Assembly (NCBI GenBank): GCA_049970635.1
Contig: JBMFMO010000001.1
Location: forward strand, 1-40,594
Length of the DNA: 40,594 bases
Reading direction: 5' to 3'
From: Minisyncoccia bacterium
GTDB taxonomy: Bacteria; Patescibacteriota; Minisyncoccia; UBA6257; HR35
How positions within the stretch are numbered: the first letter of the stretch is position 1; the number at the start of each line of letters is the position of its first letter. Below, piece by piece: positions 5,696 to 37,803 of this stretch. The position numbers and the translations under genes were made by a program. The notes beneath the pieces are model-generated. The model was not told the origin of the DNA, searched no databases, and saw only the letters and a list, made by a program, of their open reading frames with translations.

Positions 5696-6333
5696 AAATT
5701 ATACCTGCTATAAATACTAGAAGTTTTGATGAGGCTAAAGAAAGGATAAATTTATTAAAAGATTTGACAAAAGATTTTCATATAGATATTTCTTCAATTG
5801 ATTTTTCAAATTATGAAACTTGGCAAAATCCTAAAGAAATTGATAAATTAGACGACGATTTAAAACTTCATCTGCATTTAATGATAAGATTAAAACCACA
5901 AGAAATTTTAAAATGGGATAACAAAAGAATTAAATCTTTTATCTTGCATTTAGAAGGAACAAATTTACCAGATGCTTTATTAAAATTTTCTAAAAAAACT
6001 AAAAAAAGTATATTTGTTGCATGGAGCCCTAAGATAGAAAAAGAATTTATTGAAAGATATATAAAATTTGTAGATGGAATTTTAGTTTTAGGAGTTGAGC
6101 CTGGAAAATCTGGACAAAAAATTTTGGAAGATACATTTGAAAGAATAAAAATAGCAAAAAATTTTTTAAATAATAAACAAAAACTAATAGTAGATGGAGG
6201 AATTAATATGGAAAACATCAAAGATATAATAAAGCTTAATGTTGATATTATAGTTATAGGATCAGCAATATTTGAGGGAAATAACCCAAAAGAAAACTAT
6301 TTAAAGTTTTTAAAAGCCGCTGATGAACGCTGA
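5692..6333 (+). CDS. rpe: Ribulose-phosphate 3-epimerase family protein
   Basis: 213 aa. IIPAI, HIDIS, LHLHLM, GVEPGKSGQKI and VDGGIN..VIGSAIF match the Rpe barrel signature positions. The sequence is divergent. Confidence 0.65.
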   Translation: MKIIPAINTRSFDEAKERINLLKDLTKDFHIDISSIDFSNYETWQNPKEIDKLDDDLKLHLHLMIRLKPQEILKWDNKRIKSFILHLEGTNLPDALLKFSKKTKKSIFVAWSPKIEKEFIERYIKFVDGILVLGVEPGKSGQKILEDTFERIKIAKNFLNNKQKLIVDGGINMENIKDIIKLNVDIIVIGSAIFEGNNPKENYLKFLKAADER

Positions 6334-6362
6334 TAAATAATGAACCACGGATTTACGCTGAT
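6318..6362 (+). repeat. Phased word array: CGCTGAT/CACGGAT x4, starting inside the rpe 3' end
   Basis: Word starts at 6318, 6328, 6346, 6356 (spacing 10, 18, 10). The rpe stop TGA (6331-6333) lies inside the second word. Confidence 0.8.
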
Positions 6363-6367
6363 ATTAT

Positions 6368-7733: not shown

Positions 7734-7748
7734 AAAACCGAATAGAAT

Positions 7749-7823
7749 ATCCGCGTTCATCCGCGGTTTTTATTAGAGATCAGCGTATATCCGCGGCTGA
7801 AAATATATCCGCGTTAATCAGCG
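7749..7823 (-). repeat. Phased word array: ATCCGCG/ATCAGCG x6 (reverse complement of CGCGGAT/CGCTGAT)
   Basis: Word starts at 7749, 7759, 7779, 7789, 7807, 7817 (spacing 10, 20, 10, 18, 10). The array ends 1 nt from the dnaJ stop. Confidence 0.85.
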
Positions 7824-7824
7824 G

Positions 7825-8853
7825 TTATTGTTTTTCTATTTCTTCTTTGATTTTTTTTAGTAGTTCTTTGATTTTTGGAGTTAATTTTTTGATTGGTTTT
7901 ATATTTACTTTAATTATTAAATCTCCTCCATGTATACCATATCCAGGTATTCTTATATAATCTTCAGTAAAGTTTTCAGGAATTTTTACATTAATATCTT
8001 TGCCAAAAAAGTTTATCTTTAAATCTTTCCCCAATATTGCATCAATTATATTTAAATCTATAGATGTTATAATATCCCTTCCTTTTACATCATATTTTGG
8101 ATGTTTTTGTATATTTATTCTTATCAAAAGATCTCCGCTCTTTTTTGTTTTTGGATTTTGGTCACCCAAGCCTGCTATTCTTATAATTTCATATGGATTA
8201 AAGTTTTTGGGCAAATTTATCTTTACAACCTCATCTTTTATAATATATCCTCTTCCTTGGCAATTTTTACATACTTTTTCAGGAATTTTTCCTGTTCCAT
8301 TACAATTTCTACAAATTTTGCTAGTTTCAAAGATAAATCCTGTAAAGAAGCTTGATTTTGATCTTATTTTTCCATAACCATTACAAATAGGACATTTTAT
8401 TAATCTTTTAGTTTCGCTTCCTGTTCCATCACAATTTGGGCATATAACTTTTCTCTTAAAATTTATAACCTTTTCTATTCCATTTAAAATTTCTGGAATT
8501 GTAACATCAATATCTAAAATAATATCCTTACTTTTTTCTTCAGGATAAAAAGAAAAAAAATCCTCTAATAAATCAGATAGTAAATCATCAAAATCTTGTC
8601 TTCTAAAAAAGCTTTCCAAATCTTCAAATCCAAATCCAGGAAACTCAAATCTTCCCATCTTTCTTTTCATATCATACTCTTGCCTTAATTTTTTATCTGA
8701 CAAAATTCTATATGCTTCTAAAATTTTTTTAAATTTTTCAGCATCTCCACCCATATCAGGATGGTATTTTTTAGCAAGCTCCCTAAACCTTTTCTTTATC
8801 TCTTCTTCAGATGCATTCTCTGGTACTCCTAATATTTGATAATAATCTTCCAT
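7825..8853 (-). CDS. dnaJ: Molecular chaperone DnaJ
   Basis: 342 aa. J domain with YHPD. Four CxxCxGxG zinc-finger repeats: [32 protein letters not shown]. Confidence 0.9.
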
Positions 8854-9784: not shown

Positions 9785-11599
9785 TTATGTTTGTTGTTGT
9801 CCATAAAATTGTTGACCTATTTGTGAAATGATTGATGAAAGTTCTTTTATTTTATTATCAATCTCATCAGGATCATTGCTTCTATTTTTTATATCTTCTA
9901 ATTCCTTAATCTTATCTTCAATTGTCTTAACTAAATCTTCCGATATTTTATCTTTATAATCATTTAATATCTTTCTTGTCTGATAAATAATATTATCTGC
10001 CTGATTTTTTGCTTCTGCCAATCTTCTTTTTCTTAAATCTTCTTCTGCATGCATTTCTGCTTCTTTTTTCATCCTTTCTATCTCTTCTTTTGAAAGATTT
10101 GTTGATCCCTCAATTCTCACAGATTGTGTTTTACCAGTTGCCTTATCTTTTGCAGTAACAGTTAATATTCCATTAACATCAATATCAAATGTAACTTCAA
10201 TCTGTGGAACTCCTCTTGGAGCTGGTGGTATTCCATCTAAAATAAATCTTGCTAGTGTTTTATTATCATCTGCTATTGGTCTTTCTCCTTGGACAACATG
10301 AATTTCTACTGATGTTTGGTTATCTGCTGCAGTTGTAAATATTTCTGTCTTAGAATATGGGATCGGTGTATTTTTAGGAATCATAGGGTGAGCAATATTT
10401 CCTAATGTTTCAATAGATAATGTTAATGGTGTTACATCTAAAAGCAAAACTTCTCTAACCTCTCCTTGTAATATTCCTGCTTGAATTGCTGCTCCTATTG
10501 CTACAACTTCATCTGGGTTTATATCTTTTCTTGGTTCTTTTCCAAAATAATCTTTCACCATTTTTTGAATTAATGGCATTCTTGTTTGTCCTCCAACTAA
10601 AATGATCTCATCAATATCTTTTGGTGTTAATCCTATCTCTTTCAAAGTTTTATCAACTATCTCCATTGATCTTTCTACAAAATGTTTTGTTAAATTTTCT
10701 AATTGTGCTCTTGTAAGTTTAAAGTATAAATGCTTTGGCTGGCCTTCATAAGAAGTTATAAATGGAAGATTAATTTCTGTTTCATATAAAGTAGAAAGTT
10801 CTTGTTTTGCTTTTTCTGCTGCTTCTTTTAATCTTTGTAATGCTAAAGGATCTTTGCTTAAATCTATTCCTTCTTGTTTTTTATATTCTTCTATTAAAAA
10901 TTTAATAATCTCTTGATCAAAATCGTCTCCACCCAAAAATGTATCTCCACCTATCCCTTTTGTTTCTATAACATTATCTCCTATTTCTAAAACAGATACA
11001 TCAAATGTTCCGCCACCAAAATCATAAACTAAAATTTTTTGATTAACATTTTTATCTAATCCATATGCTAATGCTGCTGCTGTTGGCTCTGGTAATATTC
11101 TTCTAACATTAAATCCTGCTATTTCTCCTGCTGCTTTTGTTGCTGCTCTTTGTGAATCATTAAAATATGCTGGTACTGTTATAACTGCATCTGTTATTTT
11201 TTCTCCCAATTTTTGTTCAACATCTAATTTTATCTTTTGTAAAATCATAGCAGAAATTTCTTCTGGCCTATACCATTTATCTCCCATCTTAACTTCAACT
11301 CCTCCATTTGCAGATTCTCTTATTTCATATGGCAAAATTTTTTTAGCTTTTTGAACTTCTTCATCACTATATCTTCTACCAATCAATCTTTTTATAGAAA
11401 ATATTGTATTTTGAGGATTTGTTATAGCTTGTCTTTTTGCTAAAATCCCAACAATTCTTTCACCAGATTTTGAAATAGCAACAACAGAAGGAGTTAATCT
11501 CCCTCCTTCAGGATTTTCAATAACACGGGGAGTTCCAGCTTCAACAATCGCAGCAACTGAATTTGTTGTTCCTAAATCTATTCCTAAAATCTTTTGCAT
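9785..11599 (-). CDS. dnaK: Molecular chaperone DnaK (Hsp70)
   Basis: 604 aa. [19 protein letters not shown], and a full substrate-binding domain and lid. Confidence 0.95.
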
Positions 11600-11617
11600 T
11601 TTATTATTAATAATTAT

Positions 11618-11872
11618 TTAATTAATGTTAAAAAATTCTTTTAAATAATAATTATTTAATATTTCCTTATAATGGGATTGTTGGGAAATTTTTCTGTTAA
11701 CAGGAGATAAAAATTTTTTGAAGATAAAAATTTTGTTTAACAAAAAATTGTTATCCTTATAGGCTAAAAATCCCTTTATTTTCCTATATTTTTCAACATT
11801 ACAAAACCTTTCTTCAAAATTTTTTATTCTTCTATTTGTTGTTCCTAAACCTATTCCTAAAATCTTTTGCAT
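11618..11872 (-). pseudogene. Duplicated dnaK 5' end (first 13 codons) fused to an 84-codon open frame spanning an AT-rich insert
   Basis: 11834-11872 matches 11561-11599 at 38/39 nt. The ATG at 11872 sits 1 nt after the grpE stop. The frame stays open to 11618, 19 nt before the real dnaK ATG. Confidence 0.6.
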
Positions 11873-11873
11873 C

Positions 11874-12386
11874 TTAATGAACAATTACTTTTACTTTTGC
11901 TGGTCTTAATAATTGATCATTTAATTTATATCCTTTAGCCAAAACTTCTATTATTAAATTATCATCACTTTTATCGCAATTTTCTTTATCGCATTTTTTT
12001 GTTGAAATAGCTTCATGAAACTTTGGATCAAATTTTTCTCCCTTTGGATCTATAACTTCTAATCCATATCTTTTTAAAATCCCCCAAATTTGTGCTTGTA
12101 TCATATAATATCCTTTTCCTAAATTTTTTTCCTTTTCATCATCACTTAAAGAATTTGTAGCCAAATCTAAACTATCCAAAACTGGCAATAATTCTAAAAT
12201 CAATCCAGCATTTGCAAAATATATTATATTTTTCATCTTTTCCTCAGCCTCTTTTTGATAATTTAAATGTTCAACCTTCATCTTTTTTAAATTAGCAATC
12301 AAATCCTCATTTTCTTTCTTTAATTTTTCAATTGTCTCTTGCAATTCTTTTACTGTTTCGTCTTCTGTTGGTAATTTTTCATCCAT
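11874..12386 (-). CDS. grpE: Nucleotide exchange factor GrpE
   Basis: 170 aa. An N-terminal coiled-coil is followed by a C-terminal beta domain (FDPKFHEAIS...RPAKVKV). Confidence 0.85.
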   Translation of the reverse strand: MDEKLPTEDETVKELQETIEKLKKENEDLIANLKKMKVEHLNYQKEAEEKMKNIIYFANAGLILELLPVLDSLDLATNSLSDDEKEKNLGKGYYMIQAQIWGILKRYGLEVIDPKGEKFDPKFHEAISTKKCDKENCDKSDDNLIIEVLAKGYKLNDQLLRPAKVKVIVH

Positions 12387-14721: not shown

Positions 14722-15155
14722 TTTGTTAATTCTTCAATTAATTTTAATATTTCATCTGCTACAAAGATTATTATAAAACCTAAAAATGTATATAATAAAG
14801 CTTTTTTCCCTTTTTCAATTAATTCTTTTTTCATTGGAGAAAATATAAAAAATCCTGCTACAACAACTATCATTAAAACAAATATTATTGCTGAAAAATA
14901 TTTTAATGCATTTGTTACTTTTTCTACACAAGCAGTTATTTTACCAAGCGCAGTATCTTTGCCTTCTGCACATTTTGGTATAGCTGAAGGTGCTATTTGT
15001 TTATAAAAATATCCCCATGCTTCTGGTTTTAGAGGATTTAAATAATCTTGATTTTGTTGTCCATTTGGAGGATTTAAATAATCTTGATTTTGTTGTCCAA
15101 ATGTAAAAAATATAGGTATTAAAATTAAAGATAAAATAACTATTATCTTTTTCAT
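14718..15155 (-). CDS. TrbC/VirB2-like (T4SS-pilin-like) small membrane protein with a 12-aa tandem repeat
   Basis: 145 aa. Signal peptide, GQQNQDYLNP x2, then TM - MKKELIEKGKK loop - TM. ATGA overlaps on both sides. Confidence 0.55.
   Translation of the reverse strand: MKKIIVILSLILIPIFFTFGQQNQDYLNPPNGQQNQDYLNPLKPEAWGYFYKQIAPSAIPKCAEGKDTALGKITACVEKVTNALKYFSAIIFVLMIVVVAGFFIFSPMKKELIEKGKKALLYTFLGFIIIFVADEILKLIEELTK
15032..15103. repeat. 36-bp tandem repeat x2 inside the 145-aa gene
   Basis: Units 15032-15067 and 15068-15103 are identical at 34/36 nt. They are in frame and encode GQQNQDYLNP(P/L). Confidence 0.9.
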
Positions 15156-29907: not shown

Positions 29908-29981
<74 letters not shown>

Positions 29982-30524
29982 CTAATTAACCTTAATAATT
30001 TTTCCTTTTCCTGTTTTTTTAGATATTTTTACTCCTTTATTTGTCTTTTCAAAAATTTTTTTGAAATTTTCTGAAGGCTTAAAAAATGAATATCCTATAC
30101 TTAAACTTGATTTAAACTTTTCAATCTTCCCATCTATATATTCTTTAATTTCTTTTATCTTTTTAGGAAAGTTTTTTTTATTAACATTTAATGCTAATAT
30201 CAAAAACTCATCACCTCCCCATCTACATATAATATCTTCTTTCCTAAATTTTCTTTTAAGATTTGATGCAACAGTTTTTATTAATTTATCTCCCTTATTG
30301 TATCCAAAGTTATCATTAACATATTTTAGATTATCAATATCAGCAAGGATTATACAATGAAAAATTTTTCTCTTTTCCCTATTTTTTTTACTAAATAAAT
30401 TAAGTTCATTTGCTCTCCATTTAAACCCTCTTCTATTTAAACATTTTGTAAGTTCATCATAAAAAGCATAATCTATTAATTTTTTTATTGTATCAATTAT
30501 TTCATTTATCTTTTTCATCCTCAA
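29982..30524 (-). CDS. Stand-alone GGDEF-domain protein (putative diguanylate cyclase) with an RxxD I-site
   Basis: 180 aa. DELTKCLNRRGF, ADIDNLKYVND, and RKEDIICRWGGDEFLIL, in which the RxxD lies 5 residues before GGDEF. No sensor domain is present. Confidence 0.75.
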   Translation of the reverse strand: MRMKKINEIIDTIKKLIDYAFYDELTKCLNRRGFKWRANELNLFSKKNREKRKIFHCIILADIDNLKYVNDNFGYNKGDKLIKTVASNLKRKFRKEDIICRWGGDEFLILALNVNKKNFPKKIKEIKEYIDGKIEKFKSSLSIGYSFFKPSENFKKIFEKTNKGVKISKKTGKGKIIKVN

Positions 30525-33951: not shown

Positions 33952-33954
33952 TTG

Positions 33955-34026
33955 AGCCAGAGGTGGGATTCGAACCCACAACCTGCCGCTTACAAGGCGG
34001 CTGCTCTGCCATTGAGCTACTCTGGC
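33955..34026 (-). tRNA. tRNA-Thr(UGU)
   Basis: The reverse complement reads GCCAGAG TA GCTC AATGGCA GAGC A GCCGC CTTGTAA GCGGC AGGTT GTGGG TTCGAAT CCCAC CTCTGGC T. Confidence 0.9.
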
Positions 34027-34036
34027 TTATTAAATA

Positions 34037-34065
34037 ATTATAAGATAAAAGAATAAAGAGTTCAA
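34037..34065 (-). promoter_or_regulatory. Sigma70 promoter TTGAAC-17-TATAAT for tRNA-Thr
   Basis: -35 at 34065-34060, which lies in the unique insert. -10 at 34042-34037, which lies in the duplicated segment. The tRNA 5' end is 10 nt downstream of the -10. Confidence 0.55.
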
Positions 34066-34309
34066 GGAAATTAGAAATTTTCTATTTATAACCCAAGGTT
34101 CAAAAATTATTTATTTTCCTATATTTTTTATGATCTATCTTTAAATAGGATTTGGAAAAAAATTTTGTGAATATAAAAATAAAGTAAAGTTTTTCCATTA
34201 ATAGAAGAAGATCTTTTAAAAAAAATTTTAATCTCTTATCTTAAAAATAGAGTATATGAAAAAATATTGAATTTTCCTATATTTTTTAATATTAAAAATT
34301 TTTTAATAA

Positions 34310-34364
34310 AAGGCGGCTGCTCTGCCATTGAGCTACTCTGGCTTATTAAATAATTATAAGATAA
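34310..34364 (-). pseudogene. Duplicated tRNA-Thr 5' half (nt 1-33, 34310-34342) plus 22 nt of its upstream flank, including the TATAAT
   Basis: A 55-nt exact copy of 33994-34048. The identity ends inside the anticodon. Confidence 0.85.
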
Positions 34365-34444
34365 CACGGACTTAACACGGACAAGAACGGACTTAACGCA
34401 GACAGACGCCGACTTAACACGGACATACACGGACCAAAACGGAC
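34364..34444 (+). repeat. Phased word array: ACACGGAC and variants x8
   Basis: ACGGAC-type cores start at 34366, 34377, 34387, 34398, 34408, 34419, 34429, 34439 (spacing 11, 10, 11, 10, 11, 10, 10). Units 4 and 5 are ACGCAGAC and ACGCCGAC. Confidence 0.9.
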
Positions 34445-34540
34445 ATAAAAATGATATATCTGAACAATCAGTGTCAAGCCCAAACTGTCTGTGTTAAGTC
34501 TAGTATTTTTTAAAAATTAATTCGACCTTATTTAATTATA

Positions 34541-36305: not shown

Positions 36306-36388
36306 TGCCCCTAGGAGGATTCGAACCTCCACCCCAAAAAGGGACATACCTCTGAAGTATGTGCGTCTACCAATTCCGCCATAGGGGC
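36306..36388 (-). tRNA. tRNA-Leu(CAG), type II
   Basis: The reverse complement reads GCCCCTA TG GCG GAATTGGTAGA CGC A CATAC TTCAGAG GTATG TCCCTTTTTGGGGT GGAGG TTCGAAT CCTCC TAGGGGC A. Confidence 0.9.
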
Positions 36389-36825
36389 TATTTTGGTTGT
36401 AATTGTAAACTCCTAATCGTCCCTGAGGCTGTTGTTGCTGAAAATTCAAAATTCAAATTTAATTGTGTAAATGGATTATAGGAACCAAAAAAACCTTTTT
36501 TCTGATATTCTACTTCAACTCCATATATTGGTGCTACTTGTGGAATATTAAAATATGCTATTGGATTATATGGGTCTGTTCCAAAAAATGAAAATGGGAT
36601 TGTTGATGTACCATTGGTATATCCTCCTCTACTTAATTCATATAAACTATAATTTAAAGAAGATAATGTTCCACTAAAAACTCCTGGCAATTTATTTATA
36701 AAATTTGCCATCTTAATCTCTTTCCCCATAATATTTCCTATTGTTATAACAATGACTAAACCTAAAATAGCTAAGACAACTAAAATTGCAAACAATACTT
36801 CACCCTTCTTTTTTAAAAACCCCAT
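36388..36825 (-). CDS. Pilin-like membrane-anchored protein (degenerate prepilin motif)
   Basis: 145 aa. MGFLKKKG-EVLFAILVVLAILGLVIV, then a beta-rich domain. It is the third gene of the pilin-like trio. Confidence 0.45.
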   Translation of the reverse strand: MGFLKKKGEVLFAILVVLAILGLVIVITIGNIMGKEIKMANFINKLPGVFSGTLSSLNYSLYELSRGGYTNGTSTIPFSFFGTDPYNPIAYFNIPQVAPIYGVEVEYQKKGFFGSYNPFTQLNLNFEFSATTASGTIRSLQLQPK

Positions 36826-37316
36826 TTATAAATTGTTGATGTTAATGAATAATCTTGTGTCCTTCTCTTATTTTCTAATTTTATAAAAACATTTATAAAT
36901 TTTCCACTTGTTGATACATTAAAACTTGTAAGATCAATCCTGTCTGAAATAAACCTATCTGATGAATTTTGATTTTCTATATATAATGTTGTATCTGTTG
37001 AAAACAATCTTTCATAAGTACCATCATTGAATATAAATTTTATACTATTTGCAGCAATCTCTGTTGATGAACAATATGTATTATTATAATATATTTTTTG
37101 TAAAATCTTAAAACTCTCATTTCTTAATAATAATTTATCATAGTATTCTCCTGTATAAAAAATTATAGCATAAAAAATAGCAATTACAAGAAGGAAAACA
37201 AAAGAGATAATCCCTACATATAAGATAAACTCTATTACAGTAAAACTTTTGTTATGGTAACCAAATTTTTCCTGATGTTGCTTCAACAGCTGGTGATTTT
37301 GTTGCATATTCTCCAT
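36813..37316 (-). CDS. Type IV pilin-like / pseudopilin protein
   Basis: 167 aa. A long leader, then S-FTVIEFIL (Glu at +5) and a hydrophobic helix. The start is uncertain because of a 65-nt overlap with the upstream ORF. Confidence 0.5.
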   Translation of the reverse strand: MENMQQNHQLLKQHQEKFGYHNKSFTVIEFILYVGIISFVFLLVIAIFYAIIFYTGEYYDKLLLRNESFKILQKIYYNNTYCSSTEIAANSIKFIFNDGTYERLFSTDTTLYIENQNSSDRFISDRIDLTSFNVSTSGKFINVFIKLENKRRTQDYSLTSTIYKWGF

Positions 37317-37803
37317 TAATTGTTGTTAATGGACCTTCTATATTTGGGGTTGTCCAATTTTCTTGTAAAAAAGCTTTTATATTCCATCTTGTTAAAATCA
37401 GATTAGATTTATAAAGAAGGCTTGGTGTTTGAATAAATATAGCCATAAGTTTTTTGTTTGGATCTTCATCCAAACTTAGATCTAAAATCTGAAACCATAT
37501 ATAATATTTCTCTCCCCTTACATCAATTTCTTCTCTTCCTTCTTGGATATCAAAACCTGTTGATGTTGGAACAAAATAATAATCTATATTATCAACTAAT
37601 TCATCAAATTTTGAAAAGTTTTCCCTTGCTATTCCATATAAAATATTTTGATAATTTAAGTTTAGGTTGTAAAAAATTAAAGATTCTTCAGAATATCTTA
37701 ATACATTTGGGATTGTATTAAATATTATAAAAATTGATAAAGAAAGTAAAATTACCAAAAGTATACTTAGTAAAGCTTCGATTAAAATTTGTCCTTTATT
37801 CAC
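37252..37803 (-). CDS. Type IV pilin-like / pseudopilin protein with a class III signal peptide
   Basis: 183 aa. [20 protein letters not shown] has Gly at -1 and Glu at +5. It overlaps the fusA stop by 8 nt. Confidence 0.6.

Follow-up and report, generated by a model that had tools for sequence, protein, structure and literature searches.

The window, by which we mean the whole stretch of 40,594 nucleotides that was analysed, has a G+C content of 27%, and its genes are densely packed. On its minus strand both ARAGORN and Rfam call a threonine tRNA gene with the anticodon TGT, and ComEC starts 2 nt past the 3′ end of this gene. The 5′ part of the tRNA, together with its -10 box and upstream flank, is one arm of a direct repeat, the second arm of which lies further upstream and is identical at 55 of 55 positions; allowing one mismatch, the repeat extends to 58 nt (33991-34048 and 34307-34364, 98% identity). 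Read on the coding strand, the repeat consists of TTATCTTATAATTATTTAATAA followed by tRNA nucleotides 1-33. An exact repeat of this length cannot have arisen by chance in 40.6 kb. One arm belongs to the intact gene, and the other is a stump at which ARAGORN finds no tRNA. Identity between the arms stops just past the first base of the anticodon, between CTT and GTAA. The original prediction had described a 55-nt repeat of this content, a very AT-rich spacer of 261 bp, and an identity break within the anticodon; sequence comparison, ARAGORN and Rfam agree with the first, direct measurement (261 nt, 16% G+C) with the second, and alignment of the two copies with the third. The coordinates of these and the other features discussed below are collected in Table 1.

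Table 1. Features of the tRNA-Thr and dnaK loci in the window, of comparable events in relatives, and of the homologous proteins.
Feature	Position or accession	Strand	Remarks
tRNA-Thr(UGU), intact gene	33954..34026	minus	ARAGORN; Rfam tRNA, 75.4 bits
Repeat copy A, working	33994..34048	minus	tRNA nt 1-33 and 22 nt of upstream flank; TATAAT 34042-34037
Repeat copy A′, dead stump	34310..34364	minus	-10 box and tRNA nt 1-33, without the 3′ half; TATAAT 34358-34353
-35 hexamer TTGAAC	34060..34065	minus	Predicted; inside the insert, 17 nt upstream of the working copy's TATAAT
ACACGGAC-type word array	34364..34444	.	Abuts the dead stump; context, outside the duplication
Insert B	34049..34309	minus	261 nt, 16% G+C; probable decayed member of the family also found in dnaK
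Family motif AAAAATATAGGAAAAT, copy b	34113..34128	minus	Within internal 29-nt repeat 34102-34130
Family motif AAAAATATAGGAAAAT, copy a	34271..34286	minus	Within internal 29-nt repeat 34260-34288
dnaK working repeat copy	11561..11603	minus	TAA-A-ATG and dnaK codons 1-13
dnaK dead repeat copy	11834..11876	minus	Adjoins the grpE stop; two A>G changes
dnaK insert, family member	11604..11833	minus	230 nt; motif AAAAATATAGGAAAAT at 11778-11793
84-codon frame	11618..11872	minus	From the duplicated dnaK ATG through the insert; stop 18 nt before the real dnaK ATG
dnaJ event in a relative	L031 7253-7629, also L032		213-nt insert between two copies of the dnaJ start with 11 nt upstream; copies of 82 nt with one mismatch
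tRNA-Trp event in a relative	L027 6225-6385	minus	Dead copy of nt 1-40, to the anticodon-loop edge
Three family homologues	MGC8981773.1, MGC8981707.1, MGC8981447.1		Locus tags ACP5JU_02385, ACP5JU_02040, ACP5JU_00645

For the working tRNA-Thr copy, a consensus scan predicts the promoter TTGAAC-17-TATAAT, with 10 of 12 matches, and the same scan calls none for the upstream stump. As predicted, the promoter of the working gene is a hybrid, with a -35 box from the insert and a -10 box from the duplicated target. It had indeed been proposed that the functional copy draws its -35 box from the insert and that the truncated copy has a -10 box alone and is flanked by an array; the scan bears this out, and the ACACGGAC array begins where the stump ends. 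The event would also have given the surviving gene a better -35 box.

Some further features of the window may be recorded here. Arrays of CpG-containing words (CCGCGGAT and CGCTGAT types) with a phase of about 10 nt lie at 150-235, 6310-6365 and 7747-7826 and are of the same class as the array beside the stump. At 15028-15099 there is a tandem duplication of 36 nt in perfect register, 97% identical, which adds an in-frame repeat of 12 codons within an ORF. Between EF-G and tRNA-Leu (36388-37803), three consecutive ORFs of 145, 167 and 183 aa have no Pfam match.

The sequence between the two tRNA-Thr arms does not resemble a gene. It has six to seven stop codons in each forward frame and no ORF longer than 46 codons, with frameshifts and stops throughout, and it sits at an untranslated position. 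An internal partial duplication places copies a and b of the motif AAAAATATAGGAAAAT 158 nt apart. Several familiar kinds of inserted DNA were considered and rejected. A group I intron or other known RNA does not fit, since the Rfam search of the locus (E<=1) matched the tRNA alone, with no intron model matching the insert, and neither this insert (z = +1.18) nor the one at dnaK folds better than its shuffled versions. A decayed GIY-YIG gene does not fit either, as translations of the insert read through the stops had no match in Pfam; nor did Pfam disclose any ORF or remnant of an integrase, transposase or GIY-YIG protein in it. The neighbouring ORFs tested for an integrase or nuclease were housekeeping genes or had no match. 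Finally, an insertion sequence or MITE transposon was rejected because the insert lacks terminal inverted repeats, having only weak internal AT-rich arms that are 74% complementary, and because the duplications at the two loci, 55 and 43 nt, are neither short nor of fixed length.

A scan of the whole window for A-B-A structures found just two, the one at tRNA-Thr and one at dnaK. The claim that dnaK has the same architecture holds: a repeat of 43 nt with two mismatches encloses 230 nt that are related to the tRNA-Thr insert. In the relatives L031-L037, grpE and dnaK abut as grpE-TAA-A-ATG-dnaK, which represents the empty dnaK site; GrpE of relatives with the empty site is 90% and 76% identical to that of the window. 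Relatives' contigs from public sequencing runs likewise join position 11593 to 11874, skipping the insert. The two A>G changes of the dead dnaK copy distinguish it from both the working copy and the relatives. With this drift at 2 of 43 positions, the dnaK structure was not made by an assembler, and the drift also suggests that the insertion at dnaK preceded the one at tRNA-Thr.

The comparison of the two inserts makes it quite probable, if not certain, that they are homologous. Their best local alignment has a score of 34, where dinucleotide shuffles give 21.3 ± 3.6 (4 of 500 shuffles in one series, then 1 of 300). It runs colinearly for about 200 nt with both inserts oriented alike to their host genes, and the reverse complement scores at background. 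The 16-mer AAAAATATAGGAAAAT occurs three times in the window, where 0.0016 occurrences are expected, always within the inserts, and is not found among 30 relatives' loci. Homology was judged on the local alignment and the 16-mer and not on a gap-tolerant global alignment, in which the reverse complement scores nearly as high. It had been suggested that further copies of the insert be sought; in the window, the search returned the dnaK insert, 22 kb away, as the only significant match of the tRNA-Thr insert.

The 84-codon frame through the dnaK insert is open in only 11 of 20,000 shuffles (p ~5e-4), the stops per frame being 1, 7 and 14. Searched exhaustively with HMMER, a set of 1.84 billion representative proteins yielded two homologues; a third came from a profile search. 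These proteins, P0054-P0056, are 51-68% identical with E-values of 1e-10 to 1e-21 (BLASTP of P0053 against P0056 gives 3e-32); they are 'hypothetical proteins' from three contigs of one other Minisyncoccia MAG and are known here as proteins alone. The common core reads NRR(R/I)K.FE..F.N..KY(R/K)KI...FL.P.N(R/K)K..Q.S.YK.ILNN.Y, and two of the homologues open with other N-termini, MAVKIGIDLGTAN... and MAKIVKQLELGIINN.... In P0053, P0054 and P0056, those with an N-terminal extension, the junction to the core follows a '(D/G/E)LG(T/I)xN' motif; the extension here is the start of dnaK, and in the other MAG it resembles the start of MreB or DnaK. This junction motif could reflect a target preference, or spread between genes for actin-fold ATPases. 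The family proteins had no match in Pfam, PHROGs, NCBIfam or PDB sequences, and an AlphaFold model with a pLDDT of 44 was too poor for a fold search. Protein-profile scans of metagenome and viral collections, and tblastn of about 530 kb of relatives' loci, returned no further members.

Why the frame at dnaK has stayed open may be explained in two ways. The peptide itself may be selected, or selection may act on the open frame alone, for translational coupling. The latter is plausible because the genes here are coupled and ribosomes would still be delivered to dnaK by a frame that ends 18 nt short of it. The decay of the untranslated tRNA-Thr copy fits both readings. One may go further and view the inserts as an undescribed minimal mobile element of the Minisyncoccia/Paceibacteria, about 230-260 bp long and holding a frame for a basic peptide of about 70 codons without a start codon of its own. 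Such an element would enter the first ~13 codons (or 33 nt) of highly expressed genes, borrow the host promoter and ATG, and regenerate the host gene by a target duplication of 40-55 bp, and its frame would be kept either for a role of the peptide in spread or for translational coupling. We offer this view tentatively and consider it rather unlikely, but should the inserts prove self-mobile, an insert family whose open frame is conserved would represent a new type of element.

What the tRNA-Thr locus looked like without the insert can be read from relatives. These were retrieved via RNase J and are MAGs of Patescibacteria (Paceibacteria/Parcubacteria), many of them from hot springs. The closest ComEC homologues are 83% identical and lie on five independently assembled contigs (L025-L029), each with a single tRNA-Thr gene that is identical in sequence to that of the window and directly upstream of ComEC. 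Its flank is homologous, with TTATGATATAATTTTACTAA before the initial GCC where the window has TTATCTTATAATTATTTAATAA, and this homology includes the -10 region. Neither a stump nor an insert is found at tRNA-Thr in any of the five assemblies. Since the relatives have one uninterrupted tRNA-Thr with a homologous flank, the 55 nt are native and the 261 nt were added, and the claim of an insertion thus stands when compared with the empty site.

The relatives differ from the window on the other side of the repeat. The gene upstream of tRNA-Thr is RNase H in the relatives, whereas here it is RNase J with the word array. The sequence after RNase J differs in every relative examined, and synteny with the closest relatives stops at the upstream edge of the 55-nt repeat. 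With the upstream gene different, a rearrangement has to be placed at this point as well, and the empty site is that of the relatives and not the exact pre-insertion state. Two observations on the surroundings may be added. RNase J, an inverted word unit and the ACACGGAC array occupy 34365-34540, and the end of the array coincides with the duplication edge. At 33952/33953, between the tRNA-Thr 3′ end and ComEC, relatives' contigs from two public runs (X2 and X3) have about 0.9-1.1 kb of unmatched sequence where the window has 2 nt. A search of metagenome collections with the 33-mer of the tRNA-Thr 5′ half found one contig only, which was already in the set. Among public sequencing runs none was found to hold this genome, and the four listed hold relatives at about 90% identity with empty sites.

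Comparable events have taken place independently in the relatives. The start of dnaJ is duplicated in two separate JGI samples (L031 and L032), leaving a dead dnaJ stub of 35 codons, and the corresponding site is empty in L036 and in the window (8853/8855). The other case is the tRNA-Trp gene of L027, upstream of which lies a dead copy of the gene's 5′ part. This stump is split by a 20-nt GC palindrome, CCTGCCTGCCGTCAGGCAGG, and is followed by about 66 nt with a new TGATATAAT promoter; the tRNA-Thr stump has no GC-rich palindrome. The tRNA-Trp duplication amounts to 28 nt with one mismatch in 28; the working copy has a T in the D loop where the dead copy and the relatives have a C. Both L025 and the window (29908-29982) show this site empty. 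The dnaJ and tRNA-Trp inserts have no detectable relation to the family at dnaK and tRNA-Thr. Across the clade, the duplications of such events range from 28 to 87 nt (28, 43, 55 and 82 nt among them) and the inserts from 66 to 261 bp. Both tRNA events break at the anticodon loop, which hints at a structure-dependent break there, two cases being too few for more. In a more distant species (ten assemblies, 20 kb sampled), no such event was seen.

The structure at tRNA-Thr, which is known from the assembled contig alone, is a real and recent insertion scar. With moderate confidence we interpret it as an insertion with long target duplication, in which a member of the AT-rich family of about 260 bp was added in the course of repair or replication. 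In this scenario, a family member of ~260 bp that was already non-coding would have entered tRNA-Thr(UGU) at the anticodon loop. The -10 box, the 22-nt leader flank and tRNA nucleotides 1-33, 55 bp of target in all, would have been duplicated. The downstream copy would have stayed joined to the 3′ part of the tRNA and become the working gene with its hybrid promoter, and the upstream copy would have been left as a dead stump beside the old upstream sequence. As to the source of the insert, the perfect repeat around a sequence that is heavily decayed by comparison with the dnaK copy implies either that the source copy was non-coding or that gene conversion has taken place between the repeats.

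We infer that neither a transposase nor an integrase made the duplication and that it came from repair or replication. Captured DNA may have been sealed in as two nicks 55 nt apart were filled, or a replisome may have switched template into a family copy and returned upstream. A search for an enzyme or break signal at the locus identified none. In a tightly packed genome free of spacers, only insertions that regenerate the interrupted gene, or both neighbours, would be expected to survive, and it is in part through such survivorship that these insertions are seen at the 5′ ends of genes and at gene junctions. The host is probably competent, since ComEC is encoded beside the tRNA-Thr site.

A different account of the repeat is that a small mobile unit carried its own copy of the promoter-proximal 55 nt, within which a Campbell-type crossover, either site-specific or homologous, brought about its integration. 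This would mirror the replacement 3′ end that tRNA islands bring with them, and we regard it as doubtful, although parts of the data would suit it well. The anticodon loop is the classical crossover place of integrases that target tRNA genes, and the break falls within this loop at tRNA-Thr and at its edge in the L027 tRNA-Trp. The odd base in the D loop of the working tRNA-Trp would be explained if that copy had come from outside, and the family ORFs elsewhere bear other host-like N-termini, with the junction always after '..LG(T/I)xN'. The identity of the two 55-nt arms carries no information on whether the second was carried by the insert or copied from the target. However, no integrase or nuclease domain is present in the insert, the family proteins or the neighbouring ORFs that were tested, and a GC-rich palindrome of the kind that splits the tRNA-Trp stump is missing from the tRNA-Thr stump. 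Each new target would also need a new carried copy, which leaves the first duplication in each gene unexplained. Moreover, at dnaK the working copy is ancestral and the dead copy has drifted, as a simple target duplication predicts.

That the structure was produced during assembly, as a loop in the de Bruijn graph or as a chimera of strains joined through a shared 55-mer, is very improbable. The suspicion arises because the repeat is exact and its length of 55 nt is precisely the default largest k of metaSPAdes. The SPAdes contig of a distant relative (L019, 4102-4455) does contain an exact direct repeat of 127 nt, the copies 227 nt apart, which resembles a k-mer artefact and is probably one, 127 being a common assembler k. 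However, even a graph loop at a 55-mer presupposes genuine reads that run from tRNA nucleotide 33 into the insert and from the insert into the -10 flank. The sister structures are mismatched (2/43 at dnaK, 1/82 at dnaJ and 1/28 at tRNA-Trp), one of them recurs in two independent samples, and the same contig has, at dnaK, a second insert to which this one is related. The original prediction had also allowed for an aborted or partly deleted tandem duplication; although direct repeats are in tandem orientation and such duplications are common, a larger tandem duplication with a decayed or partly deleted middle can hardly be credited. Compared with the tRNA 3′ half and ComEC on one side, with the array and RNase J on the other, and with the DNA upstream in the relatives, the middle is no more similar than expected by chance; it would need to have decayed fully while the 55-nt arms stayed identical, and it matches the insert of another locus, dnaK.

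Insertion with long target duplication is thus the interpretation that we carry forward, and it has implications for how genomes of this kind change. The genomes of Patescibacteria are tiny, with abutting or overlapping genes, and the locus is a clear example of a poorly understood form of DNA entry into genomes so tightly packed. Short inserts at the very start of essential, highly expressed genes may be a recurrent route by which new DNA, spacers and promoters come in, with a duplication of 28-87 bp repairing the damage that the insertion does to the host gene. To our knowledge, the mechanism of long target duplications has remained unsolved ever since they were first reported, with restriction-modification genes. 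In a clade where such events are many, small, recent and easy to align, breakpoints can be mapped and models of their formation put to the test.

Among known systems, genomic islands and prophages in tRNA genes, which are bounded by the attL and attR sites of tyrosine integrases, duplicate the 3′ part of the tRNA and carry their integrase. The tRNA-Thr locus is like them in the break within the anticodon loop and in having an intact tRNA regenerated next to a displaced partial copy. In contrast, it is the 5′ part (nt 1-33) and the -10 box that are duplicated here, and the insert is of 261 bp and has no integrase. Bacterial MITEs and insertion sequences have terminal inverted repeats and fixed duplications of 2-15 bp. 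The inserts described here share with these elements their small size, non-autonomous nature, multiple copies and location near gene starts, but differ in having no terminal inverted repeats and variable duplications of 43-55 bp. Insertions are also known from the stable RNA genes of the same bacteria: the CPR rRNA ISs are intron-like, structured and encode LAGLIDADG enzymes (J Bacteriol 2024, PMC11270868). Both they and the present case indicate that Patescibacteria tolerate many insertions in stable RNA genes. However, the tRNA-Thr insert has neither structure, nor a match to an intron model, nor a nuclease domain, and the gene here is restored by duplication and not by splicing.

The closest counterpart is the class of insertions with long target duplication. 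As described by Nobusato et al. (2000), cited in Furuta et al. (2010, NAR 38:2428, PMC2853133), the repeats of this class are longer than 30 bp and variable in length, without mobility genes or other mobile elements. In the latter paper, long target duplications are placed mostly in naturally competent species, and DNA breakage is proposed as their cause (PMC2853133). Both direct repeats of the window, 55 nt and 43 nt, exceed 30 bp, and at tRNA-Thr and dnaK alike the repeat is single-copy, without an insert, in related genomes. The inserts here have no transposase, integrase or inverted ends, the duplication length differs between events (28-82 nt in those tested), and the host, with ComEC present, is probably competent as well. 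The differences lie in what is inserted and where. The published cases are kilobase inserts with restriction-modification genes, whereas those found here are 66-261 bp long, AT-rich and without a domain match. At least two of them appear to form a small family, distinguished solely by an open frame that spans about 70 codons, and the positions of the inserts fall within the first 30-70 nt of genes with high expression (tRNA, dnaK and dnaJ). The class of insertion with long target duplication is therefore a known one, and what is unusual in this instance is the small size, the position in the 5′ half of a tRNA with donation of a promoter element, and the kinship to an ORF-bearing family that is otherwise known from one other MAG.
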